IMG/VR virus record: IMGVR_UViG_2541047758_000018
Length of the DNA: 34,871 bases
DNA from: a virus
Taxonomy: Duplodnaviria > Heunggongvirae > Uroviricota > Caudoviricetes
Reading direction: 5' to 3' (one strand)
The position numbers and the translations under genes were made by a program. This document shows, in pieces, positions 1 to 28,221 of this stretch. The stretch's first letter is position 1, and every line of letters starts with the position of its first letter. The notes beneath the pieces were generated by a model, which saw only the letters and a list, made by a program, of their open reading frames with translations, did no database searches and was not told where the DNA came from.

Positions 1-1260
1 ATGCCAAAACTCACAGATATGCAGATCCGCACATGGATAAAGGCGGGAGACAGATTTGATGGCAAGGCAGACGGCAACGGCCTTTATATTTGCTACCCCA
101 AAAACTACACAGTCCCGTTCTGGCGATTCCGCTATAAGCTCGCAGGAAAGCAGCGGGCTATGGTTATAGGCTCTTACTCCGAACTGTCACTATCAAAAGC
201 CAGAGAAACAGCAAAAGAGCTGTCAGCCAGAGTTGCTCTTGGCTATGACGTAGCAGCAGAGAAACAGGAACGAAAAGCTGAAGCACTGGCAAAAATGGAG
301 GCTGAGAAAAACGCCATGCGTGTTTCAGATCTGGCCTCCGAATACTTCGAGCGCCAGATACTTCCGAGATGGAAACATCCCGATATCCTTCGCCGGAGAA
401 TTGATAAGGATATTAACCCCTGCATTGGGCATATGAAGGTAGAGGACGTTAAGCCACGTCACATTGACGACATGTTGAAAGGTATCGTTGACCGAGGAGC
501 ACCAACGATAGCAACAGATGTATTACGCTGGACACGCCGTATCTTTGACTATGGGATAAAACGCCACGCTCTGGAGATAAACCCTTGTTCAGCGTTTGAA
601 GTATCTGATGCTGGTGGTAAAGAGGTTTCCCGCGACCGTTGGCTAACTCGCGATGAGCTTATCAGGCTATTCGAGGCTATGCGCACCGCAAAAGGATTCA
701 GCCGCCAGAACGAACTGACATTTAAGCTATTGCTGGCACTATGCGTTCGTAAGATGGAGTTATGCGCCGCACGATGGGAAGAGTTTGATTTAGATGGTGC
801 GGTATGGCATTTGCCGGAAGAACGCAGCAAAAACGGAGACCCTATTGATATACCTCTACCTTCCCCAGCCGTTGAATGGTTGAGAGAGCTACACACCTTT
901 TCATGTAATAGCGCATGGGTGCTTCCAGCCAGGAAAATGCAAAACAGAATGATCCCACATATTCAGGAAAGCACTTTACCCGTAGCACTGGCTAAGGTTC
1001 GCGCCGAAATGCCGGATGTGCCTAATTTCACGATTCACGACTTCCGACGCACCGCACGTACTCATTTAGCAGCGTTGGGTGTTGATCCTGTCGTAGCGGA
1101 ACGATGCCTCAATCATCGCATTAAGGGCGTAGAGGGGATTTATAACCGCCATCAGTATTTTGATGAGCGTAAAGCAGCACTGGCACTGTGGGCTGATCTG
1201 CTGGTGGCACTGGAAAGCGGAAAAGACTACAACGTAACGCCTCTCAGAAGGGCGAACTAA
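1..1260 (+). CDS. int: P4-type tyrosine integrase (site-specific recombinase), apparently full length (419 aa)
   Basis: N-terminus MPKLTDMQIRTW resembles the P4-integrase N-terminus (MSLTDAKIR... from memory); C-terminal catalytic region HDFRRTARTHLAALGV...NH...GIYNRHQY carries the R/H-x-x-R...Y tyrosine-recombinase signature. It is the first gene of the island, so the att site would lie upstream of the window. Confidence 0.9.
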   Translation: MPKLTDMQIRTWIKAGDRFDGKADGNGLYICYPKNYTVPFWRFRYKLAGKQRAMVIGSYSELSLSKARETAKELSARVALGYDVAAEKQERKAEALAKMEAEKNAMRVSDLASEYFERQILPRWKHPDILRRRIDKDINPCIGHMKVEDVKPRHIDDMLKGIVDRGAPTIATDVLRWTRRIFDYGIKRHALEINPCSAFEVSDAGGKEVSRDRWLTRDELIRLFEAMRTAKGFSRQNELTFKLLLALCVRKMELCAARWEEFDLDGAVWHLPEERSKNGDPIDIPLPSPAVEWLRELHTFSCNSAWVLPARKMQNRMIPHIQESTLPVALAKVRAEMPDVPNFTIHDFRRTARTHLAALGVDPVVAERCLNHRIKGVEGIYNRHQYFDERKAALALWADLLVALESGKDYNVTPLRRAN

Positions 1261-2435: not shown

Positions 2436-2639
2436 ATGAACACCGACACTATTCCTACAAAAGGCTATATCAGACGCTTTCGCCTGGCTGAATTGCTGGG
2501 CGTTAGTGTATCCACCATCGACCGTAAAGTAAGAAACGGTTCACTACCACGTCCGGTAAAGCTGGGAGAAAAAATAACTGCGTTTGATGCGGTTGAGATT
2601 CACAACTGGCTGGCAGAACGCCGCGGGAAGGTGGCCTGA
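2436..2639 (+). CDS. AlpA-family (phage excisionase/transcriptional regulator-like) HTH protein, 67 aa
   Basis: Small protein with the pattern RFRLAELLGVSVSTIDR...LPRPVKLG....F...E...WL typical of AlpA/Xis-like winged-helix regulators; positioned directly downstream of the integrase module as in CP4-57 and PICI-type elements. Confidence 0.75.
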   Translation: MNTDTIPTKGYIRRFRLAELLGVSVSTIDRKVRNGSLPRPVKLGEKITAFDAVEIHNWLAERRGKVA

Positions 2640-6764: not shown

Positions 6765-7128
6765 AAATGCAGAAATGGCGCTTAGCTCCGCAATCGGAGA
6801 GCAGGTGGCAAAGATTGCTGGTGCTGTGTGGATTCATAACCTTCATTCTACTGGTGAAGAGAAAATGGCAATTCAGACGCCAGAGGGACGCACCATTACT
6901 ACATCTCTGAAGCCGTCAGATGTTTGTGATCTGATTTGCGCATTCATGTACCCAGCAATGAGGACTGTCCACGGCGATAAGTGGAAACTTGCGACAACCG
7001 CTGAATTTGATATGTGGCTAAACAATGATGGCATGCTGACTGATTACGGAATAACCAAGTGGCAGATGCTGGTTAGCCATATCGCAAACGCTATAGACCA
7101 CGTGGGGTACGGTGATGCGAAACATTGA
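6757..7128 (+). CDS. Hypothetical protein (123 aa)
   Basis: Overlaps the upstream gene by 8 nt and the primase gene by 17 nt, typical phage-like coupling. Confidence 0.5.
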   Translation: MRENAEMALSSAIGEQVAKIAGAVWIHNLHSTGEEKMAIQTPEGRTITTSLKPSDVCDLICAFMYPAMRTVHGDKWKLATTAEFDMWLNNDGMLTDYGITKWQMLVSHIANAIDHVGYGDAKH

Positions 7129-9871
7129 TCTTATCCGTCAGGTTATCAGTGCGTCTGAAAACAACTGGCCTCATGTGCTGGGCTGCCTGAACATAAATGT
7201 CCCTGACTCTCCGCGCCGTCATGCTCCCTGCCCTGCATGTGGGGGCAAAGATCGATTCCGATTCGACGACAACGGGCGCGGTAGCTTCATCTGTAATCAG
7301 TGCGGCGCTGGTGATGGGCTGGATTTAATTAAACGCGTAAATAACTGCGACACAACAGAGGCGGCGTTGCTTGCCGCTGATGTTCTGGGTATTGATTACC
7401 GGACAACGGAAACACCAGAAGCCACCAGCCAGAAACGGGAACAACTGGAAACCGAGCGCCAGCGACGCGAACAGGAGCGCCTGAAAAGGGCAGAGAAGGA
7501 CGAACAACAAAGACGGGATACGTTTTCCCGTCAGTTTGATGACATGCGCAGAAAGGCTGTAAACGGCAAATCTGATTATCTGGTTGCGAAAGGGGTAGGT
7601 GATTTTACATTCCCCGTGTTGCCCGATGGATCTCTGTTGCTGGCGCTGGTGGATAAATCCGGCGCAGTCACAGCAGCACAGACTATTACCTCACATGGTG
7701 AAAAAAGACTCCTGACAGGTTCAGCAAAGCGAGGGGCATATCACGCCATAAACGCACCAGAAACAACACAGAGCATCTTAATCGCAGAAGGGCTGGCAAC
7801 GGCATTATCTGCCCATTTAATTCGTCCAGAGGCGCTGACAGTGGCGGCGATTGATGCCGGGAACCTGTTATATGTCGCCCAGGTACTGCGGGATAAATTT
7901 CCTTCAGCACAAATCATCATTGCTGCGGATAACGACCACAGCGAAGGAAGACAAAACACGGGGAGAATAGCAGCAGAAAAAGCAGCTTTATCTGTTTCTG
8001 GATGGGTGGCATTACCCCCGACAGATCACAAAGCAGACTGGAATGATTACCACCAAAAACACGGCATTAAATGCGCCACAGAAGCGTTCAATAAGTCAAT
8101 GTACCAACCACAGGGTAATGGCGTGAAACAGGAGCCACAGACCATTGAGGGAAGCGATTTTAAGGTTATGGATACCGACCCACTGAAACCAAGAATAGAA
8201 AGCCGCGAGGATGGTATTTATTGGGTATCTCCGAGAGCTGACAGCCAGAGTGGAGAAATCATCAATAACGAAAGCTGGTTATGTTCTCCGTTAAGCGTTA
8301 TCGGTACTGGCAGAGACGATAAAGACCAGTATCTCATTCTTCGCTGGCTGTCGTTTGGTTCTGAAACGCCGACAACCGCTGCCATTCCACTGGCTGATAT
8401 TGGTGAACGTGAAGGATGGCGCACACTTAAAGCTGGTGGGGTAAATGTCACGACCAAAAGCAGCCTCAGAGCAATACTGGCAGACTGGCTACAACGCAGT
8501 GGCTCTCGTGAATTGTGGCGTGTTGCTCATGCCACTGGCTGGCAATGCGGAGCGTACATCATGCCTGATGGGGAAATCATCGGAACACCTGAAAATCCTG
8601 TGCTGTTCAGCGGGAGAAGCTCAGCCGCAGCCGGATATACCGTCTCAGGGAGCGCGAAAAGCTGGCGTGATAACGTGGCGCGTCTGGCCTTTGGTAACTA
8701 TTCAATGATGACCGGGATCGGCGCAGCACTGGCAGCGCCATTGATTGGGCTGGTGGGCGCTGACGGGTTCGGCATTCATTTCTATGAGCAGTCGAGCGCA
8801 GGTAAGACCACCACGGCAAACGTGGCGAGCAGCTTATACGGCAACCCTGATTTACTGCGGCTGACGTGGTACGGAACCGCGCTGGGGCTGGCAAATGAAG
8901 CTGCCGCCCACAATGACGGACTAATGCCGCTTGATGAAGTTGGTCAGGGCGCTGATCCTGTCAGTGTTTCACAGTCTGCCTATGCGTTATTTAACGGTGT
9001 AGGGAAACTGCAAGGCGCTAAAGATGGTGGAAACCGGGATCTAAAACGCTGGCGTACAGTGGCAATCAGCACCGGAGAAATGGATTTAGAAACATTTATC
9101 GCTACTTCCGGGCGAAAAACCAAAGCCGGGCAACTGGTGCGACTGCTGAATATTCCGTTGAGTAAAGCAGTACGCTTTCACGATTACCAGAACGGAAAAC
9201 AGCACGCAGACGCACTGAAAGACGCTTACCAGCATCACCACGGCGCGTCCGGGCGTGAGTGGATTAAATGGCTGGCAGACCACCAGCAACAGGCTATTAA
9301 AACTGTTCGTGATTGCGAAAGCAGATGGAGAAGCCTGATCCCATCCGATTATGGTGAGCAGGTTCACCGTGTAGCCGCGCGATTTGCCATTCTGGAGGCC
9401 GCATTGTTGTTAGGCGAGGTTGTAACAGGCTGGGATGCTCAGACATGCCGTGATGCGATACAGCACAGCTATAACGCATGGTTGCGCGAGTTCGGCACAG
9501 GTAACAAAGAGCATCAGCAGATTATTGAACAAACGGAGGCATTTCTTAATGCCTATGGGCTTAGCCGTTTTGCACCATTTCCATACAGCCCGGCAGATTT
9601 GCCCATCAAAGATTTAGCCGGATACCGTCAGCGTGGAGAACATGACGAAAGTCCAATGATTTTCTACACATTCCCGGCCACATTTGAAAAGGAGATCGCA
9701 TGTGGTTTCAACGCAAAACAGTTTGCTGAAGTGTTGAAAAAAGCCGGGATGCTAACCCCACCAAACAGCGGTCGTGGATACCAAAGAAAATCACCACGTA
9801 TTCAGGGACGACAAATAAACGTTTATGTACTCAATTACCAGCCAGGAGATTACAACTCATCTGAAGAATGA
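7112..9871 (+). CDS. P4 alpha-like primase-helicase (Zn-ribbon + TOPRIM primase + C-terminal NTPase domain), 919 aa
   Basis: Zinc-ribbon motif PCPACGGKDRFRFDDNGRGSFICNQCGAGDGLDLI; TOPRIM-like acidic motifs ILIAEGLATAL and IIIAADNDHSEG; C-terminal region with Walker-A-like YEQSSAGKTT. Confidence 0.9.
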   Translation: MMRNIDLIRQVISASENNWPHVLGCLNINVPDSPRRHAPCPACGGKDRFRFDDNGRGSFICNQCGAGDGLDLIKRVNNCDTTEAALLAADVLGIDYRTTETPEATSQKREQLETERQRREQERLKRAEKDEQQRRDTFSRQFDDMRRKAVNGKSDYLVAKGVGDFTFPVLPDGSLLLALVDKSGAVTAAQTITSHGEKRLLTGSAKRGAYHAINAPETTQSILIAEGLATALSAHLIRPEALTVAAIDAGNLLYVAQVLRDKFPSAQIIIAADNDHSEGRQNTGRIAAEKAALSVSGWVALPPTDHKADWNDYHQKHGIKCATEAFNKSMYQPQGNGVKQEPQTIEGSDFKVMDTDPLKPRIESREDGIYWVSPRADSQSGEIINNESWLCSPLSVIGTGRDDKDQYLILRWLSFGSETPTTAAIPLADIGEREGWRTLKAGGVNVTTKSSLRAILADWLQRSGSRELWRVAHATGWQCGAYIMPDGEIIGTPENPVLFSGRSSAAAGYTVSGSAKSWRDNVARLAFGNYSMMTGIGAALAAPLIGLVGADGFGIHFYEQSSAGKTTTANVASSLYGNPDLLRLTWYGTALGLANEAAAHNDGLMPLDEVGQGADPVSVSQSAYALFNGVGKLQGAKDGGNRDLKRWRTVAISTGEMDLETFIATSGRKTKAGQLVRLLNIPLSKAVRFHDYQNGKQHADALKDAYQHHHGASGREWIKWLADHQQQAIKTVRDCESRWRSLIPSDYGEQVHRVAARFAILEAALLLGEVVTGWDAQTCRDAIQHSYNAWLREFGTGNKEHQQIIEQTEAFLNAYGLSRFAPFPYSPADLPIKDLAGYRQRGEHDESPMIFYTFPATFEKEIACGFNAKQFAEVLKKAGMLTPPNSGRGYQRKSPRIQGRQINVYVLNYQPGDYNSSEE

Positions 9872-9895
9872 GCTTCTTCATGTGCGTAGAAAAGG

Positions 9896-10010
9896 TGTTG
9901 GTTCAGTTGGTTCAGTTGGTTCAATTTGTAAAGAGTATTGTTTTATAAGGATTTTATTCTTTTTATTGAACCAACACTGAACCAACAACACGGTATTTTG
10001 AACCAACACA
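9896..10010. repeat. Putative replication origin: three tandem GGTTCAGT-type iterons, AT-rich spacer, three inverted GAACCAAC iterons
   Basis: gtgttggttcagttggttcagttggttcaa (9896-9925), then about 40 bp of AT-rich sequence, then ttgaaccaacactgaaccaacaacacggtattttgaaccaacaca (9966-10010); sits immediately 3' of the primase gene, as ori/crr does in P4 and as ori does in PICIs. Confidence 0.6.
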
Positions 10011-10328
10011 ATGTGACTGAATTGATGCGCACAACACCTGGCTGGCATCAGAGAGTGTTTTACGAGACTTTCGTAAAATCCTGTGTACAAGGGCGTGACG
10101 TTTTTGAAAGTGAGCACTACGAAATTTTCGTAGTTCAAAAAACAGCCTCTGAGAAGTTGTTATGCCTGTTCAGCAAACCATCCGCATAGCTGATCGCGAA
10201 TCAAATTACCAATGGAGCCAGAAGCAAGGGCAGAACTGAAAAGCACCTGCCGTGAAGAGTAATGCGATACCATAAATATAGTTTTTAGAGTCCATAAAAA
10301 ACCTGTCAAAACCTGACACACAGAACGA

Positions 10329-10360
10329 TGCCACCAGCTACTGAGCGGTGGCATTTTTTT
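10329..10360 (+). terminator. Putative Rho-independent terminator
   Basis: gccacc-agctactgagc-ggtggc hairpin followed by attttttttg. Confidence 0.55.
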
Positions 10361-10456
10361 TGTGCTATTTGTTTCATATTTTGCAATTACGATGATGAAT
10401 ATTGCGATTTGTGAAACTATAATAACTGTTGTTTTATACAGTTCTAAGGGGGCGTT

Positions 10457-10618
10457 ATGGCTATTTCAGTAAAGCCGGTATTGATAAGTGAGAAGCAAAT
10501 GGAAGCGATAAAGAAAATTCAGGAAGAGCAGCGTAAAAAATCAGGAATTGGAGTAGCGCCAACTCTGCATGAAATTGCACGAGGGTTAATAGATAAGGCG
10601 CTGGCAGGCTGTATGTGA
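10457..10618 (+). CDS. Small protein (53 aa), possible ribbon-helix-helix-type regulator at the head of the ejection-protein operon
   Basis: Not in the ORF track (below 60 aa). ATG at 10457 is preceded by aagggggcg Shine-Dalgarno; translation MAISVKPVLISEKQMEAIKKIQEEQRKKSGIGVAPTLHEIARGLIDKALAGCM; about 80 bp of AT-rich promoter-like sequence lies between the terminator and the start. Confidence 0.4.
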   Translation: MAISVKPVLISEKQMEAIKKIQEEQRKKSGIGVAPTLHEIARGLIDKALAGCM

Positions 10619-10634
10619 AAATGGATGGCATCGC

Positions 10635-11096
10635 ATGGAACTAAAATTTATTGATAACCCTGTGCGATTACAGGCCTTTCTTAACGAGCCAGGCAATACC
10701 GAAAATATTGTTGAGCCGGGGCACACGTACTACATCAAGCCTGATGCGGTATATCTCGGCATCTACGAAGGATTAGTGCTGGCTGGCGTTCATGAAGTGC
10801 GTAACTTCTGGCATAGCGTTGTTGAATGCCATGCGGTGTACGACCCCGGATTCCGTGGTGAATATGCACTGCAAGGGCATCGATTATTCTGCAAATGGCT
10901 TCTCGAAAACTCACCATTCCTTAACAGCATCACTATGGTTCCTGACACCACGAAATACGGACGGGCAATTATCCGTTTGCTTGGCGCTACCCGTGTTGGT
11001 CACCTTGATGATGCTTATATCAGATGTGGTAAACCCGTCGGCGTAACGCTTTATCAGTTAACTCGGCAACAATATAAGGAATTCAGCGAATGTTAA
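10635..11096 (+). CDS. Hypothetical phage-like protein (153 aa), first large gene of ejection-protein-like operon
   Basis: ORF 16 nt downstream of the small regulator-like ORF; no motif recognised; position is analogous to P22 gp14 or T7 gp13 ahead of the ejection proteins. Confidence 0.5.
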   Translation: MELKFIDNPVRLQAFLNEPGNTENIVEPGHTYYIKPDAVYLGIYEGLVLAGVHEVRNFWHSVVECHAVYDPGFRGEYALQGHRLFCKWLLENSPFLNSITMVPDTTKYGRAIIRLLGATRVGHLDDAYIRCGKPVGVTLYQLTRQQYKEFSEC

Positions 11097-11767
11097 TTAC
11101 CCATATAGCTCATAAACATCTCAATCGTGCCGTATACGAAAAAGGCGGTGATGGTGGTGCCTCTAAAGCTCAGGCGAAGGCCCAGCAGCAGGCAATTGAT
11201 TTGCAGCGCGAGCAGTGGAATACGGTGATGAATAATCTCAAGCCGTATGCAGAAGTCGGATTGCCTGCTTTACAACAACTGCAAGGACTGATGACTCTGG
11301 AAGGGCAGAATAAAGCCGCGAATGATTTCTTTGGTTCTGGTTTATATAAAACACAGGCAGATCAGGCCCGTTATCAGAACCTTGTCTCAGCAGAAGCTAC
11401 CGGGGGGCTTGGCTCAACAGCTACCAGTAACCAGTTATCTTCCATTGCGCCCATGCTTTATAACAATTGGCTCAGTGGGCAAATGCAAAATTATGGAAAC
11501 CTGCTAAATGTCGGGATGAATGCGGCATCAGGGCAGGCAACGGCAGGGCAAAACTACGCCAATAATACCGGACAACTCTTGCAGGGGCTTGGCGCTATTC
11601 GTGCAGGTCAGGCGCAGCAGCCATCCAGTCTTGCGCGTGGTATTGGTGGGGCAGCATCAGGCGCTTTAGCGGGTGCGCAACTTGGTTCCGTTGTTCCTGG
11701 AATAGGAACTGCGGCCGGCGCTATTGGTGGTGGGCTTATTGGTCTTGTTGGGGGGCTTGGATTCTAA
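11090..11767 (+). CDS. Glycine-rich protein (225 aa) with hydrophobic Gly/Ala C-terminal tail; podovirus ejection/internal-virion-protein-like
   Basis: C-terminus GIGGAASGALAGAQLGSVVPGIGTAAGAIGGGLIGLVGGLGF is membrane-insertion-like; Q/N-rich body; operon-coupled to neighbours. Confidence 0.5.
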   Translation: MLITHIAHKHLNRAVYEKGGDGGASKAQAKAQQQAIDLQREQWNTVMNNLKPYAEVGLPALQQLQGLMTLEGQNKAANDFFGSGLYKTQADQARYQNLVSAEATGGLGSTATSNQLSSIAPMLYNNWLSGQMQNYGNLLNVGMNAASGQATAGQNYANNTGQLLQGLGAIRAGQAQQPSSLARGIGGAASGALAGAQLGSVVPGIGTAAGAIGGGLIGLVGGLGF

Positions 11768-13086
11768 TGGCGACATGGCAACTTGGCGGGCTGCCTAGCA
11801 TGGCACCGCAAAATGATAATGCTCCTCGTTCTTCCGTTCCTCAGCCTGTGCAGTATCAGCAGCAGCCAAACGTAGGTTTAATGGCGCTACAGGGGCTAAG
11901 AGGCGTTGCTGAGATTAATCAGCAGGCGCAAATTTCCCAGCAGTTAAAAGAATATCAGGCACGGTTGGGTAGTGCGGTAGCTAATAATGATCGTGTTGGC
12001 GTGCAGAAGTTAATGGCCCAGTATCCCCAGTTTATGGCTGATTCTCAAAAACAGATGGGATTCATTGATGCTGAGCAAAATCGACAGACCGCTGACGCTG
12101 CCATGAATCTGCGTCTTGCGTCACAAACTGGAGATCCACTGACCATGCAGAAGGCCATTCAGCAGGCAAATCCAGTATTACAGCGATTTGGTCTTCCTGC
12201 TGAAGAGGTTTATCAGTCTTGGCAGAATGACCCACAGGAATTCAACAGAATCACTGACCTCATCCACCTCCATGCTGATCCAAATAGTTACTTTAGTGTT
12301 CAAGAGAAGCAGCAAGGGCAGAGCATTGCACAGCAGAACGCAGATACATCCGCATATAATGCTCAGGTTAATGCGGAACAGGGTAATCGACGTCTCGATA
12401 TGGAGCAGTTCAAAGTCCTATCCGATAACCAACTACGCACGAGAGAAATGGTTCTGAAAGCACGACTTGGACGTGCTCAAAATGACATCGAGAGAGACAA
12501 GCTCAATGCTGAACTGAGCAAGGTACAGCAGGCGAAAGTGGAGAAGATGAACGATAAAATTAATACTGTTGCAGGTAACATCGACTCCTTGAACTCTGCG
12601 CTTGAAGTGGGTCATGAACTGGCGGGAATTGTAGGGAAACATCCTTCGGCCGTTACCCGCTCGCAGAACTATAACCCCCTGACGCTGGGGTTTGGATTCC
12701 TTCCTGATGTAGCAGAAGACACACGAAGCCTACGCGCCAAAGCTGATGAATACAACCTAAAGGTTATTCTGCCTAGCCTCAAAGGGACTTTTGGCTCTAA
12801 CCCAACCGAAGGGGAAAGGGCTGCCCTTATGCAATCTCAAAATGGCATTAAGTCAGCAACCAGCAATGAGGCATTTTTGCGAGAGTTGAATAAAGCGCAG
12901 GACGTAATTATTCGAATGCAGAAACGACAGATTGCCGGGCTCGGTATTCCTGTAACCAAATCTAAGGACGAAGAAACTGATACCAAAATGCTGTTGCAGG
13001 ATCCTTCACTAGTTAAGGATTATGTGACCGCACATGGCTATCTGCCGGAAAGTTACTATCAGGCAAAACTTAAGGGATGGCAATGA
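11767..13086 (+). CDS. Gln-rich coiled-coil-like protein (439 aa); ejection/internal-virion-protein-like
   Basis: ATG overlaps the upstream stop (TAATGG); composition and size resemble the middle ejection protein of podoviruses (P22 gp20 / T7 gp15 class). Confidence 0.5.
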   Translation: MATWQLGGLPSMAPQNDNAPRSSVPQPVQYQQQPNVGLMALQGLRGVAEINQQAQISQQLKEYQARLGSAVANNDRVGVQKLMAQYPQFMADSQKQMGFIDAEQNRQTADAAMNLRLASQTGDPLTMQKAIQQANPVLQRFGLPAEEVYQSWQNDPQEFNRITDLIHLHADPNSYFSVQEKQQGQSIAQQNADTSAYNAQVNAEQGNRRLDMEQFKVLSDNQLRTREMVLKARLGRAQNDIERDKLNAELSKVQQAKVEKMNDKINTVAGNIDSLNSALEVGHELAGIVGKHPSAVTRSQNYNPLTLGFGFLPDVAEDTRSLRAKADEYNLKVILPSLKGTFGSNPTEGERAALMQSQNGIKSATSNEAFLRELNKAQDVIIRMQKRQIAGLGIPVTKSKDEETDTKMLLQDPSLVKDYVTAHGYLPESYYQAKLKGWQ

Positions 13087-15414
13087 TGGCACAACTGACA
13101 GAAAAACAGAAAGCCTATTCCCGTCATCTCGATGAAAAATATGGTTTCCCATCAGGGACGATGGAAACATTAGTTGGCAATGAATCTAGTGGTAACGGAA
13201 GTGCCGAGTCACCGAAAGGAGCTAGAGGATTTGCTCAACTGATGCCCTCAGTAATGAGTGATGCTGGTTATCGTGGAACAGATCCGCGCTCACTGCCATT
13301 TGAAAAGCAAATGGATATCGCAGCAAACCATCTCAATAAAGGAATGAAGCGATTTGGTGATATAGGTATGGCATTGGCTGGGTATAATTCTGGCTATGCT
13401 CGTATTAATGCCGTCAGAAACGGTAAATCTACACTGCCAGATGAAACGGCTAATTACGTAAGTAAATTTGCAGATGCTGGAATAATCCCTGATGACAGTG
13501 AAATCTTGCAGTTTGCACAAACCAGTCAACATCGCAATCTTCAGCAGCCTGACTACTCAGAGCTTGATAAAGAAATCTCTCAGGTGGGAGATATTTCTGC
13601 ATGGGAAGCAAAACGTCAGCAATTTAAGAACATAGAAGCAGGACTACCAACAGCCAGTTCATGGGAGCAGAAAAGAGCTCAGTTTCTCGCCGATGAAAAT
13701 GCCGGGGAACCGCAGCAGCAAGTAGCCAAGTCTAACCTTAATCCTGAGATGGAATATCTTTCGCCAGGACTGAAAGCTGCGCCAGAGCAGATGGCCAGAG
13801 GGATTGCTAATATACCGTTTGATGTAATGGACGCAGGCGTGGGGGTAGTCAATGCGGCGCAATCAGCCGGAGCATGGGCAGCTCAGAAGCTTGGTGTGGG
13901 TGATGGCACATACACGCCCATATCACCTGTCTTTCGCCCAGTAGACCAACCTACAGATCCATACGCGCAGGCTGGTGAGCAGCTAGCACCTTACCTTATT
14001 ACAGGATTAGGTGCAGGAAAGGCAGCTACCGCAGCTTCTTCAGTTGCCAACGCTCCACGTGCTGAACGTGCGGCCACAAAGGTGGCTAGTATGTTGGCAG
14101 AAAACCTGCCAGGTACATTGGTGAACGCCCAAAAGAACGGGCAGATCAGCCCAGAAGACCTAGCAAAAGAGACAGGTATTGGCCTAGCAGGATCGCTAGG
14201 AGCACGCGCTTTAATAAAGAGCGGACAGACAGCCAGTGACGTAATGCGAGATGTATTGCGGAGTAATACAAATCAATCAGGCCATGTGTTAGGGGCAGCA
14301 AATACTCTGGAAACCGCCAATGATGTATCGAAAGCAGCGCGTTCTGCCGTAGGCCGAGAGCATATCGCATCGCAGGCATCAAACGTCAGAGATGATGTCG
14401 CTAAGGCGGCGAAAATCACTGGTATTAATATCAACACCCTGACGCCTGGAATGCGCTCAGGTAGTCGTGGAATTGCCCAAGCAGAAGGTGTTCTGGCATC
14501 AACTCCTGGGAATGTTCAGGATGCTCACCTTACGGCCTTCAATGAAATATCCTCAAAGTTGAATAAGCAGTTGTCTGATTTCGGTGCTGAGTCTGGAAGC
14601 GCATCAGAAAAAAGCGCAGCAATTAAAGAGCGCATCATCGCGAGCCTCAGTGATATGAAAACAGCAGAGAATATGGCATGGGCAGAACTGCGAAGCACGA
14701 TGCCACGCGAAAGGATGAAAATGAGTAATGGGATGGCTGTCGTCCAAGCAGAAAAAGCAGCCAATGTTCCACTCAGCCCGGAGATGAAACAGTTTCAGGC
14801 TGCCAACAACCAAGGTGGCGGCATAACCTTCGACGGGATGAAGGCATGGCGTGCTAAGTTTGCTGATGCTGAACAAGCAAACACCCGGGCAGGTAAGGCC
14901 AATGCCGCCCGGATTGCCGGAGAAATGCGCAGAGCTATCACTGATGACATGCGCATCATGGCTGAAAAAGGAAACTTCCTCACAGAATGGCAGAAAGCTA
15001 ACGATCTCTCTAAAAGTTACATTATCGCCAAACAAAATGCCGAATCTGTTTTTGGTCGAGATCTCGCATCAGACGCTATGGTAAGAAAAGGTGCCGATAC
15101 GCTTAAGGCATCCGCAAACACTGGAACGGGAGCTTTTCACCGTCTTATCTCCGCGCTGCCGGAAGCAGAACGCCAACCTGCAATAGCATCTATTCTTCAG
15201 CATGCTGTGGCGCAGGGAGAGAAGGGAGGAATCGGTGAAGAGTCAGGTATCCAGTATTTTGCCAAGCTCATGACCCAGCAGAATGTAAACGCCATCAGTC
15301 GTCATGCGCCAGATCTCGGTAGAATGATGAAAGAGTTCGGTGTACTCGCTAAAGCCAGTACCAGACCGCAGCGATACGTAGAGCGCACGGGAAGAACAAC
15401 TGAGGCTCTCAAAA
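13077..15414 (+). pseudogene. Phage internal-virion/ejection-type protein with N-terminal lytic transglycosylase (SLT) domain, 3'-truncated by IS911-like insertion (native part about 779 codons)
   Basis: SLT signature ESSGNGSAESPKGARGFAQLMP ... ALAGYNSGY near the N-terminus. The ORF reads through the IS end at 15415 and terminates inside the IS at 15569, so the last 51 codons are IS-derived. Confidence 0.7.
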
Positions 15415-15444
15415 TGAAGTGGTCAACAAAAACTGGCCACCGAG

Positions 15445-16628
<1,184 letters not shown>

Positions 16629-17051
16629 CTCTGTTCAGGTGGCCAAATTCAGTAAACCACTTCAGTTCCTGGAGATGATTCGTTGCTTGTGAGCAAGAGG
16701 TGGTCCGCTTTACTGGACAAGTTTTGCATTTGTTGAGTGGTGAAATGGAAGTAAAAAGAGCCCCTTTCTGGCAATGACTGAAAAAGTCAGTAGCGTGTGA
16801 CAGTAAAAACTAACATAAAGTGATTATCGTATGATTATGACAATGACTTATAACTTTTATGAAAAGAACAACAGAAACTATGAAACCATAGCAGATTCCT
16901 GAGACCATGTTTTTTGAGGTAGAGAAAATAATTCAAGAGTAAACCAGTTTGTTTTTTGATCAGTAAAGAACCATGCCTGATGTGAAAACGGGTAATCAAC
17001 ATTCAGTCTGCATGAGTGTCTGAGAATGTTGCTAATGTCGGTATGATACTA

Positions 17052-17210
17052 TATACACATATTTTACTAAGTATTTTTACTAAGCATTTCAGTAAGTGTT
17101 ATACACGTATTTTCTACTAAGTGTTTTACCAGACATACACGTATTTTCATAAACACTTCTACAAGTGTTTTCATTAAGTATTGTTATACACATTGCTTTG
17201 TCTGACACAC
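17052..17210. repeat. Imperfect direct-repeat array (ATACAC[A/G]TATTTT and ACTAAGT[G/A]TTTT motifs, about 4 copies) inside a 1.37-kb ORF-free region
   Basis: atacacatattttactaagtatttttactaagc / atacacgtattttctactaagtgttttacc / atacacgtattttcataaacacttctacaagtgttttcattaagt / atacacattg; no ORF of 60 aa or more on either strand between 16665 and 18034. Confidence 0.5.
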
Positions 17211-17980
17211 ATCCAGTTTAGTAAATCTTTACGTTAGCTAAAATCAGTTTAAAGCTGCTACAAAGCAATCTTTCCTGTTTAAGCAATCAAGATGACATTC
17301 TGTTTTTCTGAAGTTACGTTTAACCTTTTCTGAGTTTTTGTGTTTTTGGTCGTTAACCGGAGAAAAGTATCTTTACGTAAAAACGCAAATCCGACTGAGA
17401 TAACCTGGCGTGATTTACGGAGTGCTTACGACGATTTAGTTAAATGGTTTTATGGATGATTTTGTAGCGATGAGGTTGATGAGATGATTAACTGGCCCTG
17501 GTGTTTTTTTTTCTCAGAGCAAGGCTCTTTTCAGAAAAAGCGTGATGATTGGTTCTGGTGTTTTGATTCAGATGAGGTTTACGTTATCGATGGTTAATCG
17601 CTTTTATGGTGCGTAGTGAAACGTAACATTTTCAGGATGAGAAAATCGATTCTGATGTTAGTGGTTTTTGTTCTTGGGGTGGGGTTATCTGTAAACAGGT
17701 TTTAAACGCGCTATTCGGCTCTGTGATTGAGTTGTGTGGTTAAGCTATAGGTTTTGGTGTTGTTGTTGATTCACAGCGCCAGAAATCGTTCTGATTGCGT
17801 TTTTGATGTTTTGTTTGCACGTTCTGTTGATCCGTTTCCCTTCTGACTTTTCTCGTCGTCCATGCCGTTTTTAAATTCATTTGCTGTTGTTGTGTTTTTT
17901 TACCATCTTTTCGTTTGTAGGGGATTCCATTTTTATCCGGAGTAGGTTGTGTTGCTCAATGGTGGGAGTTCGTAAAGTTT

Positions 17981-18024
17981 TACCGCGGTGATTAATGATG
18001 TGAAGTCAATCCAAATCAATGGAG
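17981..18024 (+). promoter_or_regulatory. Conserved roughly 44-bp motif, copy 1, ending 10 nt upstream of the first YagK/YfjJ-like gene (includes its Shine-Dalgarno ggag)
   Basis: taccgcggtgattaatgatgtgaagtcaatccaaatcaatggag; near-identical core to copy 2 at 18917-18956. Confidence 0.45.
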
Positions 18025-18034
18025 ATCTCTCATC

Positions 18035-18766
18035 ATGAATCAACCAATACACAATGCTTACTGGTTATCCCGTTTTGAAAGTATTCTCAACAGTGCCCTG
18101 GCGCAACACCGTGCCGTCTCGTTAATCCGGGTGGATTTACGTTTCCCTGAGTATATGCCTGCCACCATTATGGATACCGATTTAGATTCAGCGGTGATTT
18201 CTCGTTTTTTCGAATCCCTGAAAGCAAAAATTCAGGCTTACCAGCGACATAAACGACGTGCCAACAAGCGTGTGCATGCAACCACTCTGCGTTATTTCTG
18301 GTGCCGGGAGTTCGGCAAGGAAAAAGGCAGGAAACATTATCACGTGATATTACTGCTCAACAAAGATACCTGGTGCTCGCCAGGGGATTTCACCGTTCCT
18401 TCTTCGCTGGCGACGCTGATCCAACTGGCATGGTGCAGTGCTCTGCATCTTGAGCCCTGGCAGGGTAATGGACTGGTTCATTTTTCCAGGCGGACGCCTT
18501 TCCGTAAACCGACATCATCCGATGCTCGCCCTTCTTCCGATGACACGCCTTTACCTGGTGGATGTTCTGATACCCGGAAGGATTCTGACAAAAAGTCTGG
18601 TGGATCCGCTGTGCTCTGGATCAAGCGTGGTGATGTAGAAGCGATGCAGAAAGCCATGGAGAGAGCCCGTTATCTCGTGAAGTATGAGACGAAGCAGCAT
18701 GACGGTTCTGGTCAACGTAATTATGGTTGCAGTCGTGGAGCGGGGCGTCTACTGGATGGCAGGTGA
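18035..18766 (+). CDS. CP4-type prophage protein, YagK/YfjJ-like (inovirus Gp2-like family) - assignment from memory of family features
   Basis: 243-aa protein with RVDLRFP ... KHYHVILLL pattern; tandem paralog arrangement next to an AlpA-like gene as in CP4-6/CP4-57 cryptic prophages. Confidence 0.45.
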   Translation: MNQPIHNAYWLSRFESILNSALAQHRAVSLIRVDLRFPEYMPATIMDTDLDSAVISRFFESLKAKIQAYQRHKRRANKRVHATTLRYFWCREFGKEKGRKHYHVILLLNKDTWCSPGDFTVPSSLATLIQLAWCSALHLEPWQGNGLVHFSRRTPFRKPTSSDARPSSDDTPLPGGCSDTRKDSDKKSGGSAVLWIKRGDVEAMQKAMERARYLVKYETKQHDGSGQRNYGCSRGAGRLLDGR

Positions 18767-18916
18767 ACCCTGTAAAACGGCATCCGGTGCCTGAGCGTAT
18801 GCCACGGTAGGGCGTCAGCCAACGCCCTTACCTCGTATTCTGATCACTCATTCTGAAGTCATGCAACGGTATTTTTATCTGCTTCCGCTCTTGGAAACAC
18901 TCCGTCGGTAAAAACT

Positions 18917-18956
18917 TACCGCCTTGATTAATGATGTGAACCGAAGTCAACGGAGG
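18917..18956 (+). promoter_or_regulatory. Conserved motif, copy 2
   Basis: taccgccttgattaatgatgtgaaccgaagtcaacggagg; shares tgattaatgatgtgaa...gtcaa...gga with copy 1. Confidence 0.45.
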
Positions 18957-19149
18957 TCATTCACCTTAAACCCACCTCAGGAATTTTACACCTGTCAGGT
19001 CTCCTGACTGTCCTGGCATACGACATCTGCCATCCCCGGTTCCACGGTTATTACATCAACAACCTCTGTACACGACGCCTTCAGTTTCACAATACGCTCG
19101 TCTTTCGCTGGCGGGGATGCGTCGTGCGTTTCTATATGGAGCATATCTT

Positions 19150-19722
19150 ATGAATGGTATCCCTCATTTCGACTATAGCCTGGCGCCCTTCTGGCCGTCT
19201 TATCAGAACAAAATCATCGGTGTTCTCAACCGTGCGCTGCGTGAACAGTCCTGCTCCCGGGTACGGCGGATCCTGCTTCGTCTGCCATGTGAATATGACA
19301 CTACCTTCAGTAGCAGAAAGACCTGGTTTGGTATGGACTTTATCGAAACTGTCAGTGCGCTGATGAATGCAAACCCCGGACGTGATCTCTGCTGGCTCCT
19401 GACTCGTCATCCGGAAAAGCCGGAATACCACGTGGTGCTGTGCGTCAGACAGGAGTATTTCGACGGCCCCGAACTGGATCGGTTGATACTGGATGCCTGG
19501 AGCAACGTACTGGGCTTCGCGTCACCGGGTGAAGCGGCACCGTACCAGAAGCAGATAACACGGGATGTGGTGCTGGACAGTCGTTCACCGGACTGCGAAG
19601 ACATCCTCAAAGAGCTGATATGGGCATTCAGTGATTTCGCCCGCGATCGTCGTGGTGTGCGCGATCCGGAAGCCCGTTACCTCGTCGGTAATCCCTGGTA
19701 TCCCGTAGCAGGCCAGCTCTGA
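19150..19722 (+). CDS. Second YagK/YfjJ-like paralog (190 aa); start placed at ATG 19150 (ggag Shine-Dalgarno 9 nt upstream), alternative start 19117
   Basis: RILLRLPCEYD ... EYHVVLCVRQEYF parallels RVDLRFPEY ... HYHVILLLNKD of the upstream paralog. Confidence 0.45.
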   Translation: MNGIPHFDYSLAPFWPSYQNKIIGVLNRALREQSCSRVRRILLRLPCEYDTTFSSRKTWFGMDFIETVSALMNANPGRDLCWLLTRHPEKPEYHVVLCVRQEYFDGPELDRLILDAWSNVLGFASPGEAAPYQKQITRDVVLDSRSPDCEDILKELIWAFSDFARDRRGVRDPEARYLVGNPWYPVAGQL

Positions 19723-19790
19723 AAGCACAGTTCAGCAGATTCACCCGCATTTGCCCAACCTTCATAAATCTCACAAAGGACATTCTGACC

Positions 19791-20024
19791 ATGTTGACCA
19801 CAACAAGCCACGACAGCGTATTGCTGCGTGCTGACGATCCCCTGATCGACATGAACTACATCACCAGTTTCACCGGTATGACCGATAAATGGTTTTACAA
19901 GCTGATCAGTGAAGGCCATTTTCCTAAACCCATCAAACTGGGTCGCAGCAGCCGCTGGTACAAAAGCGAAGTGGAGCAGTGGATGCAGCAGCGAATCGAG
20001 GAGTCACGAGGAGCTGCTGCATGA
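19791..20024 (+). CDS. AlpA-family HTH regulator (second copy in window)
   Basis: NYITSFTGMTDKWFYKLISEGHFPKPIKLGRSSRWYKSEVEQWM matches the AlpA pattern (HTH then FP.P.K.G...RW...EV..W). The true start may be the internal ATG at 19851. Confidence 0.6.
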   Translation: MLTTTSHDSVLLRADDPLIDMNYITSFTGMTDKWFYKLISEGHFPKPIKLGRSSRWYKSEVEQWMQQRIEESRGAAA

Positions 20025-20289
20025 AACGTGTTGTAATACCGGTACGCTGGCGATGTGCAAAATGCCGGCGCTGGTATTGTGGAAATCAGCCCTGTCCCTG
20101 GTGCTGGCGACACTCTCGTTCATCTTTCTGCTGATACCCTCCTGTCAGTAGCGGGTTGTAGCTCTTCCCTGACCGATTTGTCATTCCACTCTTATTGTTT
20201 ATAACGGGTATTGAGCCGGTACTGGCGTGTTTTCCTGCATGTTTGCACCGGTTCAGTAAAATTCAACAGGATTCGAAAAGGAACATTTC

Positions 20290-20838
20290 GTGCAAATAAC
20301 CGAAGCATTACTTTCAGAGCCAGGGGAAATCCGGCGTTTTGTTCAGCAGGCGGTGGATCACTGGCCGCATCTGTTGGCATTTCACTTCACGCTCCATTCG
20401 GCTGAAGAAAACATCAACGGGCAACGGGTTCAGACATTCTGTACTTCCTTTTACCGGCAGGTACACGAACGTATTGCTGAACGTAATCACACGGCCAGTC
20501 CATCATCGCCGTTGGTATTACGCTGGTTGCGGGAACAACATGGAAAAGCAACAATACGATGCCTGTTGCTGCTCAGCCAGACGAGCATTTGCCATCCGCG
20601 AGCCAGTGTCACAGTTGATGAACAATGTTCGCAAGTGGTGGATTTACTGCAACATAGCTGGCAGGTGATAAGTGCTGGCGGACAATGCCGGGTGGAAAGG
20701 TGTTTTCGGGTTGCCCGGGGTGATACATCCGGTCAGTATGTTGCGTTAAAAACAGTCGCATTGTCTCTGGGGTTACCGGTTGTGACCGCCATTACCCATC
20801 GTCCGGTACAGCGCTGTACATTGATTACAGCTCAGTGA
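20290..20838 (+). CDS. Hypothetical protein (182 aa, GTG start in ORF track)
   Basis: ORF only; weak resemblance to the YagK/YfjJ-like neighbours (HFTLH ... RCLLLLS). Confidence 0.4.
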   Translation: MQITEALLSEPGEIRRFVQQAVDHWPHLLAFHFTLHSAEENINGQRVQTFCTSFYRQVHERIAERNHTASPSSPLVLRWLREQHGKATIRCLLLLSQTSICHPRASVTVDEQCSQVVDLLQHSWQVISAGGQCRVERCFRVARGDTSGQYVALKTVALSLGLPVVTAITHRPVQRCTLITAQ

Positions 20839-20839
20839 A

Positions 20840-21181
20840 TCAGCGCTTTCTGGCTTTTCGTCGGTCATTCAGCACCATTAGCCGGGCCTCTGCCTCTTTC
20901 TGTTCCTGTAGTGTCACTTCCCCGCACGGCAGCCCCTTCAGATCGTAACGGGCGCCATCTGCCATTAACGCACATGAATAGTGCGGAGACTGCACATAAG
21001 ACGCCACTGCCGCGTGTAATGTACCAGCGCCAAACGCCAGTTCTCTGATGGCGATATCCTGTATCAGGTCGTCAGGTATCTCAACTTTAAGCGGTTGGGG
21101 TTTTTCCCGGTTGAATAACTCAGGCCAGAGTTCCACAAGACGATTAATACGCTTACGGTTTTTACGCTGGCGTTTTGTCAT
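20840..21181 (-). CDS. ProQ/FinO-domain RNA-binding protein (113 aa)
   Basis: LVELWPELFN...PLKVEIPDDLIQDIA...LHAAVASYVQSPHYSCALMADGARYDLKGLPCGEV aligns by eye to E. coli ProQ (LAERFPHCF...PLKIGIFQDLVDRVA...[35 protein letters not shown]). Confidence 0.65.
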   Translation of the reverse strand: MTKRQRKNRKRINRLVELWPELFNREKPQPLKVEIPDDLIQDIAIRELAFGAGTLHAAVASYVQSPHYSCALMADGARYDLKGLPCGEVTLQEQKEAEARLMVLNDRRKARKR

Positions 21182-22014
21182 ATGCCGCCACGGTGTTTTT
21201 TCAGCAGAGCAGGGCTCTGTTTATCGTTCAACTGTGGTATCCGTTCCCTGGCCTTCACGTTGTGTGCAGTGTTCGTTTTATCCTGCAGCGGCGTTGCCGG
21301 TGATTTACTGAAAATGCCCTGTGGTTTACGGTTAATGGTCAGCGTTACCATCAGTATTGTTACCTCATGCTGTCAATGGAAGTAGTACTCCATCCAGAGC
21401 CTTGGCGACCCCGGGGCTGAAAACGAAACAATAACCCGCGCACAGTGCGAGGAGCCCGGGCGTGAAGCAATCAGCAGGTAATATTAATGGCAAGACCAGT
21501 AGGTTCTTTAAACAAACGAACAATATCAGCAAATACGACAACTCCCGGAGAGGTAAAAAGTTTTTCACTTGAGCACTTCTTAAAAAAATGGAGACGAACA
21601 AAAATGGGGCGACATACCTGGAAAGTATTGCTACCAGATGATGCTAAAAAGCAGAAATAGTGTTCCAGGCCTGAAAGGGATGAGAATCAGTATCTGTGTG
21701 TATTTATAACATCTTCTTGAAGAGGCTGGAGATTGTTAGTCCATTAGTATAATCGATATTCGTGTTCCTGCGAATATGCAGGCTACACCAGATATATGAT
21801 TGCTACCGAATTTCATCAGTTTGATGAAATTACGCATCATACTGCGGGCTTTTCTCATTAACATTAACGAAAGTGAATGGACTCAGACAAGTAGTGACCG
21901 GCGCAATTTCGCTAAGTATCAAATACAAAGAACGTTCTCTTACTTTCTGCGATGGCCTTTCCTTCGGAAAGGAAGTGACGATTAAGTACCGAAAAATGTG
22001 ATACACATATTATT

Positions 22015-22049
22015 TTTATGGCAAATCACCTGATAGGATTTGCCATAAA
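22015..22049. promoter_or_regulatory. Perfect 13-bp-arm palindrome about 25 nt upstream of the H-NS-like gene (candidate operator or hairpin)
   Basis: tttatggcaaatc-acctgatag-gatttgccataaa. Confidence 0.45.
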
Positions 22050-22074
22050 TGAATGAAAAGCTGAGTGTTAATAA

Positions 22075-22509
22075 ATGAGTAAGAAGAAAATTTCTTTTGA
22101 AAATGAAGAGTTCATTACTTACCGGGCATTACTTCTGAGTATTGACTTTGTTAAAAAACTGGTTATAGAAATGTCTGATGAAGATTTAAATAAGGTTAAG
22201 GAAAACTTTGACATAGCTATTCAGCAACGTAATGAGCGAAAGGAAAATATGAAAGCTATCAAATCACTCATGGATGAACATGGTATATCTCTGGAAGATT
22301 TTTATTGTGAATTTGGCAAAAAATCACAGGCAGGCAGAAAAAGTGTGTCAGGAAGGCATAAATACGAGTATGACGATAACGGTAAAAGAATGTACTGGAA
22401 TGGACAAGGACGTCGGCCTAAGGCCATAGCAGAGGCTATAAAAGCCGGAGGTTCTCTTGATGATTTTCTTATATCTCAGGAAGTATCATCTGGTCCTGAT
22501 TATGAATAA
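22075..22509 (+). CDS. H-NS family nucleoid-associated protein paralog (144 aa), island-borne
   Basis: C-terminal DNA-binding signature YEYDDNGKRMYWNGQGRRPKAIAEAIKAGGSLDDFLI matches H-NS Y.Y.DENGE.KTWTGQGRTP..I.....LDDFLI; N-terminal coiled-coil-like region; AT-rich gene. Confidence 0.8.
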   Translation: MSKKKISFENEEFITYRALLLSIDFVKKLVIEMSDEDLNKVKENFDIAIQQRNERKENMKAIKSLMDEHGISLEDFYCEFGKKSQAGRKSVSGRHKYEYDDNGKRMYWNGQGRRPKAIAEAIKAGGSLDDFLISQEVSSGPDYE

Positions 22510-22925
22510 CAGCAATATATATTTTGATCTGTATTAATATCAAGAAATATATAGTAAACACTTCTCCGGAGTTGATATATTATCGGCAGGGAATGAAAAT
22601 GCCTGACTTCATGCTAATATATGGCAATAAAGATAAATGAGTTATACTGTAGAGTTATGAAATAACGATAGTGATAAGAGCCAGTCAGCGAGACTGATTG
22701 TTTTATCTGTACTGGCAGCAGGCAGTTTACCATGGCTTACTGCTTCAGCTTCTGAATCTGTGTTGATGATATTTATCTGTTTATAAGGCAAGGCTTGTCT
22801 CTGTGAGTTGGTAATCTTTATCCCGGGATAGCTTTTCTCTGTATTTTTAGTATAGCCAGTAATCGATTACTCCTGTATGCGCAAAAATATAGCAACTCAT
22901 CCATGGTAAACATGTCAGCTTTTAC

Positions 22926-23498
22926 CTACATATAGATAAATTCATATTTCACGATATACGACCCAATTTTATTAACACGAGCTGTTACCCATACACCTGT
23001 CATCCCCTGTTTATGGTGACTGCGCGGGAACTCTTTATTTGTACAAAGTTGTATCCATCTGGAAGTGTTTTGATCTTTCAACCAGAGTCCCGCTTCACAA
23101 TGTCCATACTTTCCTCTTGATGGTCCCGGAAAAACAACATCATATTCAGATTCATAGCTAATAACCTTATCCGGAAAAAGATAAACACAGACATCGTAAC
23201 AGTTCAGACTCAGTATAAATCCAAGACAAAATCCCCCCGTGAATGCATTTAATAAATACTTTAATGTTCTGTTAAAGGTGCGGATATAAAATGCATAAAT
23301 AAAAGAAAGAGAACCGGTGGTTATACCGGTGCAAAAATATGTTGTCCATTCAGGTACCGTATTTTGTAAAACAGTATAATGAGATATGGCGGATGCCCAC
23401 AACATATACCAGCACAAACCACCTGCAATAAGATATGTTATTGCTGTGGAAAACCATTTCCTGTATTTATTTTCAGGGTGATTGTTTTTGCCCATCAA
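22926..23498 (-). CDS. Hypothetical membrane protein (190 aa, about 4 predicted TM segments plus C-terminal soluble domain)
   Basis: Hydrophobic stretches ITYLIAGGLCWYMLWASAI, GITTGSLSFIYAFYI, FTGGFCLGFILSL; AT-rich; lies 97 bp downstream of, and co-directional with, the dGTPase gene. Confidence 0.5.
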   Translation of the reverse strand: MMGKNNHPENKYRKWFSTAITYLIAGGLCWYMLWASAISHYTVLQNTVPEWTTYFCTGITTGSLSFIYAFYIRTFNRTLKYLLNAFTGGFCLGFILSLNCYDVCVYLFPDKVISYESEYDVVFPGPSRGKYGHCEAGLWLKDQNTSRWIQLCTNKEFPRSHHKQGMTGVWVTARVNKIGSYIVKYEFIYM

Positions 23499-23595
23499 CG
23501 CATTTCCAGAATATTTAAAAATAACCTGTCACCGAAACAGAATAAAGGCGCAATAACCATAACGGGAAAATATGCGCCTCTGGTAATCGACAGTG

Positions 23596-24849: not shown

Positions 24850-24978
24850 GTTACCAAATCAGAATACCGGATGAACAAAACTGGTGGCTACATCCTGTAG
24901 GGATTATGTATTAGTAAGCTCTGGCCATTAGTGCCATTTCAGGTTATGTGATCCTACTCACGTAATATGGACACAGGC

Positions 24979-25845
24979 CTAAGTGAGGTTCTGGTTTTCA
25001 AATTGTTCCGGACTGAGGCCGCCACACCAACTGTGCCGCCGCCACCGATTGTAATCACATTCGATATAATTAAACACCGTTGCCCGCATTATTTCCCGGC
25101 TGATAAAGTGTTCTCCATGGATACATTCCACTTTCAGCGAATGAAAGAAGCTTTCCACGCAGGCATTATCGTAGCAGCAACCTTTTGCGCTCATACTTCC
25201 ACGCAGATTATGCCGCTTCAGTTGCGCCTGATAATCTGCTGAACAGTACTGGCCTCCACGGTCCGTGTGAACGATAACGTTCCGGGGCCTCTTACGCCGC
25301 CACAGCGCCATCTGCAGGGCATCGCAGGCCAGTTGCGCCGTCATGCGTGGCGACATTGACCAGCCAATAACGGCACGTGACCACAGGTCAATGACCACTG
25401 CCAGATACAGCCAGCCTTCATCTGTACGTAAGTACGTGATGTCTCCTGCCCACTTCTGGTTCGGGCCACTGGCGTAAAAATCCTGCTCCAACAGATTTTC
25501 TGACACAGGCAGGCCGTGTGCGCGGTAGCTGACCGGGCTGAACTTCCGGGAGGCCTTTGCCCTCAGTCCCTGACGGCGCAGGCTTGCCGCCACGGTTTTT
25601 ACGTTAAAGGGGTAACCCTGAGCACGCAGTTCATCCGTCAGGCGTGGGGCACCGTAACGCTGTTTTGACCGGGTAAAAGCCGCGAGGACAACGCTGTCGC
25701 AGTGTTGGCGGAACTGCTGACGCGTGCTTATCCTTGTCCGCCGCTGACACCACGTATACCAGCCGCTGCGGGCCACCCGGAGCACGCGGCACATTGCTTT
25801 GATGCTGAACTCAGCCTGATGTTTTTCAATAAAGACATACTTCAT
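24979..25845 (-). CDS. insF: IS3 transposase OrfB (InsF)
   Basis: [32 protein letters not shown] ... [34 protein letters not shown] ... HTDRGGQY is the IS3 InsF sequence as I recall it. Confidence 0.9.
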
Positions 25846-28219: not shown

Positions 28220-28221
28220 TA

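Follow-up and report, generated by a model that had tools for sequence, protein, structure and literature searches.

A phage satellite of the PICI/SaPI type, integrated in an Escherichia chromosome, very probably has its replication origin in a short array of repeats lying immediately downstream of a primase-helicase gene. The array was analyzed within a stretch of 34,871 nucleotides, referred to here as the window, and consists of six exact copies of GTTGGTTCA within 111 bp, arranged in two opposed sets (both strands of the window searched). This reading is favored because the opposed sites flank an AT-rich core, the layout is kept in relatives, the iterons co-vary with the protein encoded upstream, that protein shares homology with SaPI Rep, and the surrounding island displays the hallmarks of a PICI. 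An earlier note had proposed a putative satellite origin of replication, and every check made at the level of sequence supported such an origin, bound by the upstream initiator. It is a known type of origin, cleanly documented here, and does not change current understanding; what is gained is a predicted function for a 919-aa protein, named 'TOPRIM and DUF927 domain-containing protein' in RefSeq, and for an unannotated intergenic stretch.

The coordinates of the features are collected in Table 1. The earlier note had described three tandem repeats, an AT-rich spacer and three inverted repeats, and exactly this arrangement was found. Its wording of the repeat was amended in two small points: the unit measures 9 bp and always opens with G, and the base that follows the third left copy is A, not G. 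The first repeat begins 25 nt downstream of the primase stop codon (TGA, 9869-9871). The core contains a semi-conserved TTTATAAGG(A/T)TT motif, and its GC content of 16% compares with 47% for the whole window. The array exceeds chance by far: the expected number of copies of the 9-mer, counting both strands of all 34.9 kb, is about 0.28, and outside the array only one further copy was found, at 30549 in an unrelated island. Nowhere else in the window does any 9-mer form a cluster of at least three copies. Markov simulation of 200 such windows gave, as the largest cluster per 120 bp, two copies in 178 cases, three in 20 and four in 2, against the six observed. A search for DnaA boxes found none within or near the array, and a sigma-70 promoter scan of 9700-10700 returned nothing.

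Table 1. Features of the window around the candidate origin, and iteron types of the related loci.
Feature	Position	Strand	Basis or remark
Tyrosine integrase	1-1260	+	At window start
AlpA-family regulator	2436-2639	+	
Initiator gene Pri-Rep	7112..9871	+	Pfam, PDB sequence matches, RefSeq annotation
C-terminal winged-helix coding region	9569..9868	+	aa 820-919; putative iteron reader
Putative specificity patch	9785..9802	+	aa 892-897, R-K-S-P-R-I; first strand and turn of wing
Left iteron set	9897-9923	+	Three head-to-tail GTTGGTTCA, 9-bp period, oriented toward AT-rich core
Left iteron copies	9897-9905, 9906-9914, 9915-9923	+	Exact GTTGGTTCA
AT-rich core	9924-9966	.	43 bp, 16% GC; putative DNA-unwinding region
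Right iteron set	9967-10007	-	Three inverted copies, seen on + as complement TGAACCAAC
Right iteron copies	9967-9975, 9978-9986, 9999-10007	-	Start-to-start 11 and 21 bp
Motif CTGGCTGGCA	10038..10047	+	Conserved non-iteron motif, +166 after stop
Frameshifted phage antirepressor-like remnant	10094..10203	+	tblastn, two frames
P22-type ejection cassette	10635-15569		DUF2824/gp14, gp7, gp20, gp16-like with SLT (lytic transglycosylase) domain
Iteron GTTGGTTCA (type A)			Most loci
Iteron GTTGTCTCA (type B), also written TGTTGTCTC			L009, L011, L012, L013, L019
Iteron TCGGTTCA			L023, L044, L045, L057, L060
Iteron ACGGGTTA			L017, L031, L038
Iteron GTGGGTTA			L003, L055
Iteron GTCGGGTA			L048
Iteron TGGGATAA			L058, L064
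Iteron GGTCGGTT			L043
Iteron CAGGGGCA			L072

The initiator ORF upstream of the array is intact, with the start of the CDS placed at 7115 in RefSeq. Its Pfam domains are Zn_Ribbon_Prim (aa 35-70), Toprim_3 (aa 222-319) and the DUF927 helicase (aa 366-644), followed by a helical region and then by a predicted C-terminal winged helix. Among PDB sequences, the initiator matched SaPIbov Rep (8tch_A, E 1.4e-11, query aa 403-814) and, as a second match, SCCmec Cch (5dgk_A), which shows a helicase core homologous to that of SaPI Rep. The winged helix, predicted with moderate confidence (mean pLDDT 70-75), matches the C-terminal domain of Rep as well as TcpK (TcpK-oriT). No Pfam match to D5_N or Pox_D5 and no PDB match to 1ka8 or 7ola was obtained for the initiator, and BLASTP against the alpha-like Pri-Rep of EcCICFT073 gave no significant match. 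Direct homology to this experimentally tested Pri-Rep was excluded by the BLASTP result together with the different Pfam families of the two proteins.

Relatives of the primase were collected by scanning one genome per species, which gave 77 loci, and two phage-database records were added. Layout was assessed at the 64 loci that include the 3' end of the gene, using whichever 8-mer is repeated most often within 450 bp downstream of the stop. At about 58 of these loci, that 8-mer is the iteron, arranged as in the window; six have no clear iterons. The earlier note had tied its reading to conservation of the repeats in related elements, and since position and spacing are kept at these loci, the repeats are neither absent nor displaced there. 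The common plan consists of two or three head-to-tail copies, an AT-rich gap, and three inverted copies spaced 11 and 21 bp. The left set starts at an offset of +25 to +45 after the stop, and the 11/21 spacing of the right set recurs in most iteron types (offsets 106/117/138). Hosts of the array belong to many genera of Enterobacterales, among them Enterobacter, Klebsiella, Kosakonia, Pantoea, Erwinia, Serratia, Pectobacterium, Yersinia and Rahnella, and an array of the same kind accompanies a protein of 31% identity in a Desulfohalobiaceae MAG. The sequence of the iteron itself varies by lineage, with at least eight types. One primase relative, in Yersinia pekkanenii (L035), is apparently interrupted, as its tblastn match spans 3.9 kb versus 2.8 kb; a fragment from that contig (P0103) is annotated as an HNH endonuclease domain protein, so an intein or homing-endonuclease insertion is possible.

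This variation among lineages was set against the protein by aligning the last 330 aa of 61 initiators, each labeled by its iteron type. Divergence between iteron types was found concentrated in the last ~40 residues of the initiator. Over the last 330 aa, type A and type B proteins are ~81-88% identical, and the residues of the patch are the only columns without a shared residue between 40 GTTGGTTCA and five GTTGTCTCA proteins, the latter having G-R-V-gap-R-E in place of the type A residues. At L023, an A-like backbone is combined with the one-base iteron variant TCGGTTCA and the substitution S894T. Between types A and B, the flanks, the AT-rich spacer and the DNA between the iterons are still homologous, while every iteron copy is changed. 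Linkage, in the form of a recombination block covering the 3' end of the gene and the origin, was considered as the cause of the co-variation; it was rejected on the grounds that homology persists in the flanks, in the spacer and in the protein beyond aa 897, while every iteron differs. The pattern is one of apparent concerted co-evolution of the sites with their putative reader, the winged helix, and the co-variation of aa 892-897 with iteron type supports probable recognition of the iterons by the C-terminal domain. RKSPRI/GTTGGTTCA versus GRV-RE/GTTGTCTCA makes a testable protein-DNA specificity pair.

The window carries an origin of one module (3+3), while about half of the relatives add a second module of five or six sites, giving 10-12 iterons in total versus six in the window. 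The second module is made of two inverted iterons 21 bp apart, one direct copy, a spacer, and three inverted copies at a 9-bp period. The one-module form, 3+3 or 2+3, recurs across many genera. A conserved non-iteron motif, CYGGCWGGS, occurs at +152 to +170 after the primase stop in about 19 loci of five iteron types. In relatives this CTGGCTGGCA motif directly precedes the second module, whereas the window keeps the motif without the module; CTGGCTGGCA(G) was seen between the first and second modules in L005-L013, L017, L023, L045 and L048. The motif could be a priming site or a site for a host factor. The antirepressor remnant, which in tblastn resembles gp080 of Klebsiella phage phiKp_30 and the ZX1 anti-repressor, stands where the second module of the relatives was replaced and lies outside the origin. 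The palindrome TACGA-N5-TCGTA occurs at 10061 and again at 10118. A role of the pair as operators was weighed and set aside because the second falls in the coding remnant of the antirepressor pseudogene, where it encodes YEIFV. Farther downstream, a strong intrinsic terminator at 10330-10360 (+; GCCACC...GGTGGC, then T8) sits in an unannotated gap between the origin and a small ORF at 10457-10618, upstream of the ejection cassette, and might gate late-gene expression.

Several known systems were compared with this arrangement. In SaPI, the C-terminal winged helix of Rep binds iterons located directly downstream of rep, and the origin has an AT-rich middle with two or more iterons on either side, oppositely oriented; neither ATP nor a separate loader is needed for binding and melting, Rep being a self-loading helicase, and two hexamers are thought to load, one per side (PMC9371898). 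The initiator of the window shares a homologous helicase core and a matching predicted winged-helix fold with the SaPI proteins (Rep1, and SaPIbov Rep 8tch; Qiao et al. 2022, PMC9371898). Its candidate origin likewise has iterons right after the gene, an AT-rich centre and at least two opposed iterons on each side. Its helicase is presumed to be self-loading without DnaA. Unlike SaPI, the host is Gram-negative, the Toprim primase is fused in one chain, the iterons are 9 bp rather than 5-6 bp, and many relatives have a second module and the conserved CTGGCTGGCA motif. A related DUF927-type helicase and C-terminal domain fold is also found in SCCmec Cch (5dgk), which belongs to a different type of element; the literature examined describes no iteron origin next to cch.

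[quoted passage not shown] Like the candidate origin of the window, that of EcCICFT073 directly follows the 3' end of its primase/initiator gene, and opposed sets of iterons, 3+3 in the window, enclose an AT-rich region (Fillol-Salom et al. 2018, PMC6092414). In both EcCICFT073 and EcCIRM13514, two direct iterons after the stop are followed by an AT-rich stretch and inverted iterons. The initiators of these two islands are, however, P4 alpha- and PriRep5-like proteins with D5_N/DUF5906/Pox_D5 domains that match PDB 7ola and 1ka8, whereas that of the window, with Zn-ribbon/Toprim/DUF927, belongs to an unrelated family; the AAA_25 RepA-like initiator of EcCI042 is likewise unlike it. The iterons TGTCTACC of EcCICFT073 and TGTTCACC of EcCIRM13514 both differ from that of the window. 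We take TGTTCACC, read in L082 at 8565-8810, to be the phage P4 type I iteron, which fits the P4 alpha-like primase of EcCIRM13514.

Phage P4 has two separated elements, ori and crr, with the same iterons in both. P4 alpha is a functional analogue only: it too serves a satellite as a fused primase, helicase and origin binder whose C-terminal winged helix reads short iterons, but it combines a D5-type SF3 helicase with the 1ka8 origin-binding domain, neither of which was detected in the initiator of the window. The P4 ori/crr carries TGTTCACC repeats, while the window has a single cluster of a different 9-mer. The earlier note had likened the array to both P4 ori/crr and the PICI ori; the PICI half held, and the P4 half was reduced to analogy. 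Membership in the P4 ori/crr class was rejected, as neither an alpha-type initiator nor a separated ori and crr was found. An iteron-plasmid origin of the Rep_3/pi type, with direct 17-22 bp iterons and DnaA boxes, was rejected as well, because the iterons are 9 bp and opposed, no DnaA box lies near, and the initiator is a primase-helicase.

Based on the homology to SaPI Rep, a mechanism can be proposed in which the winged helix of each subunit would read one GTTGGTTCA site, so that the initiator would assemble to the left and right of the core, needing neither DnaA nor a separate loader. Melting of the core would follow, and two hexameric helicases would load in opposite directions. The first primers would be laid by the Zn-ribbon/Toprim domain of the initiator itself and extended by host polymerase III, and the excised circle would be amplified after a helper phage induces the island.

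The context of the array is that of a satellite. Genes on the + strand run from the integrase through AlpA, the AntA and Ash 'Bro-network' genes and small ORFs to the primase. The integrase shares 89% identity with its counterpart in the reference PICI EcCIRM13514, and int, alpA and genes running in one direction are likewise features of Gram-negative PICIs. In relatives, ssb and perC follow downstream, PerC being a further point of likeness to Gram-negative PICIs. The window begins at int, so that its own att site is out of view; a 99.8%-identical left end adjoins yicC, and in E. coli this type of island sits at thrW or yicC-dinD. The latter is a published PICI attachment site (Table S1, PMC6092414). 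With int, alpA and pri in one direction and a PICI attachment site, the host element can be assigned by its gene content to the PICI type. The island type is common in E. coli: in a search of 5426 complete genomes, the 2-kb segment 9000-11000 (3' end of the gene, array and downstream DNA) was matched in 988, and the 201-bp origin segment was present in 365 at a coverage of at least 80%.

Excised forms were found among deposited assemblies. Three E. coli assemblies contain the circle junction, in which the right end of the island meets the left and PerC adjoins int. NZ_LT599831.1 (L091), deposited as 'phage_14408_2', has 19,226 bp with both ends inside the injection-protein gene; its primase is identical over 918/918 aa, its 201-bp origin segment is identical, and its PerC-to-int junction is intact. 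NZ_CP148430.1 (L089) is a 12,152-bp circular 'plasmid' holding island genes only, with no other replication gene annotated; it has the same 3+3 origin with six identical iterons, differing in the AT-rich spacer and in the DNA downstream of the array. The third junction-bearing record is a chromosome, NZ_CP053080.1. A chromosomal copy is retained as well in each of the two E. coli strains that have a small separate record. L091 and L089 represent this type of island after excision, in circular form and with an intact junction. Such small records prove excision and enough extrachromosomal DNA to be assembled, which is compatible with replication but not proof of it. A literature search on the NRZ14408 'phage_14408_2' contig yielded nothing relevant. 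Three Klebsiella 'plasmids' of 16-22 kb (CP031370.2, CP031371.2 and NZ_CP069874.1) match only the iteron and AT-rich part of the origin segment, at 73-82% identity, and CP031370.2 (L090) has island-type genes with no primase in its gene table.

Two bolder ideas we regard as rather doubtful. One, suggested by these circular or circularly permuted 'plasmid' and 'phage' records of 12-22 kb in finished E. coli and Klebsiella genomes, is that Toprim-DUF927 islands may persist as helper-free, plasmid-like episomes; if true, this would go against published work, according to which PICIs lack a plasmid state. The other is that the six-residue wing patch may act as a simple, swappable code for origin specificity and, through it, for incompatibility between co-resident satellites.

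The most serious reservation about an active origin is that the window may hold a weakened one-module copy, an origin by descent that is non-functional or crippled after loss of its second module, with a pseudogene scar next to it. The fuller, two-module arrays of about half of the relatives would fit this, as would the antirepressor remnant abutting the array and the rearranged right part of the island in the window. It appears improbable, however, since the one-module form is widespread among genera, the array of the window has the SaPI minimum of at least two iterons per side, the primase ORF is intact, and the same short origin is present in two excised-circle records; the circular records in particular argue against it. 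Even less probable is that the repeats are initiator-binding sites serving copy control, autoregulation or incompatibility, in the manner of P4 crr or the control iterons of plasmids, and that initiation occurs elsewhere. Regulatory roles are common for iterons, and those of P4 are shared by ori and crr; yet the motif forms a single cluster in the window, an AT-rich core between opposed sets is the initiation geometry of SaPI and PICI origins, and the array lies downstream of the gene rather than at its promoter.

Two further explanations carry hardly any weight. Since the inverted repeats fold as a single strand at -28.8 kcal/mol (z = -7.1) and give weak hairpin-type Rfam matches, they might form a hairpin or cruciform serving as the primase terminator or as a structured RNA. 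But no T-run follows the stem, and the array is not the primase terminator, since the sole strong terminator found in 9700-10700 is that at ~10330-10360, which lies 320 bp beyond it. The arms are also unequal, with a 9-bp spacing on the left versus 11/21 on the right, L063 even having seven left versus three right copies, and relatives add same-orientation copies 21 bp apart. The Rfam matches (9800-10700, permissive thresholds) are to plant microRNA-precursor models only, score far below the gathering cutoffs and are caused by the palindrome; moreover, the iteron co-varies with the protein patch. Equally remote is a packaging (pac/cos) or recombination site recognized by a terminase small subunit or a recombinase. 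Packaging signals do occur in satellites, and TerS may bind to repeated motifs, but here the repeats track the C-terminus of the primase and not the integrase or late genes, integrases and downstream genes differ among relatives that share the iteron, and the attachment junction is elsewhere, between PerC and int.

A satellite origin of this kind would mean that the Rep/DUF927 initiator class of the staphylococcal islands, along with its origin plan, is in use among PICI-like islands of Gram-negative bacteria too. It would further offer a rule for annotating satellite origins, namely to look for iterons within ~25 nt after the stop of a DUF927 primase. Surveys of Gram-negative PICIs lump DUF927 proteins under 'Primase' (PMC10111431). 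Literature searches on DUF927 primases and PICI iterons found no study of this origin class, nor any experiment on replication or DNA binding with such initiators in Gram-negative bacteria, and a full-text search for the iteron sequence gave only unrelated primer and oligonucleotide matches.

The late region sets the island apart from the reference PICIs, as P22-type ejection genes stand in place of their capsid genes. Among the relatives, ejection genes occur only in Escherichia and in one Leclercia locus, and a literature search found no paper on satellites encoding ejection proteins. They hint at a P22-like helper. From ~16.7 kb onward (16665-34871), the window is a different island, whose genes include a DEAD/DEAH helicase, a dGTPase-like HD protein, IS3, thymidylate synthase, an XRE regulator, an H-NS-like protein and YagK/YfjJ. 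The gp16-like gene product has 830 aa in the window versus 906 aa in strain EH01-18-02, which suggests a rearranged right end of the satellite in the window.
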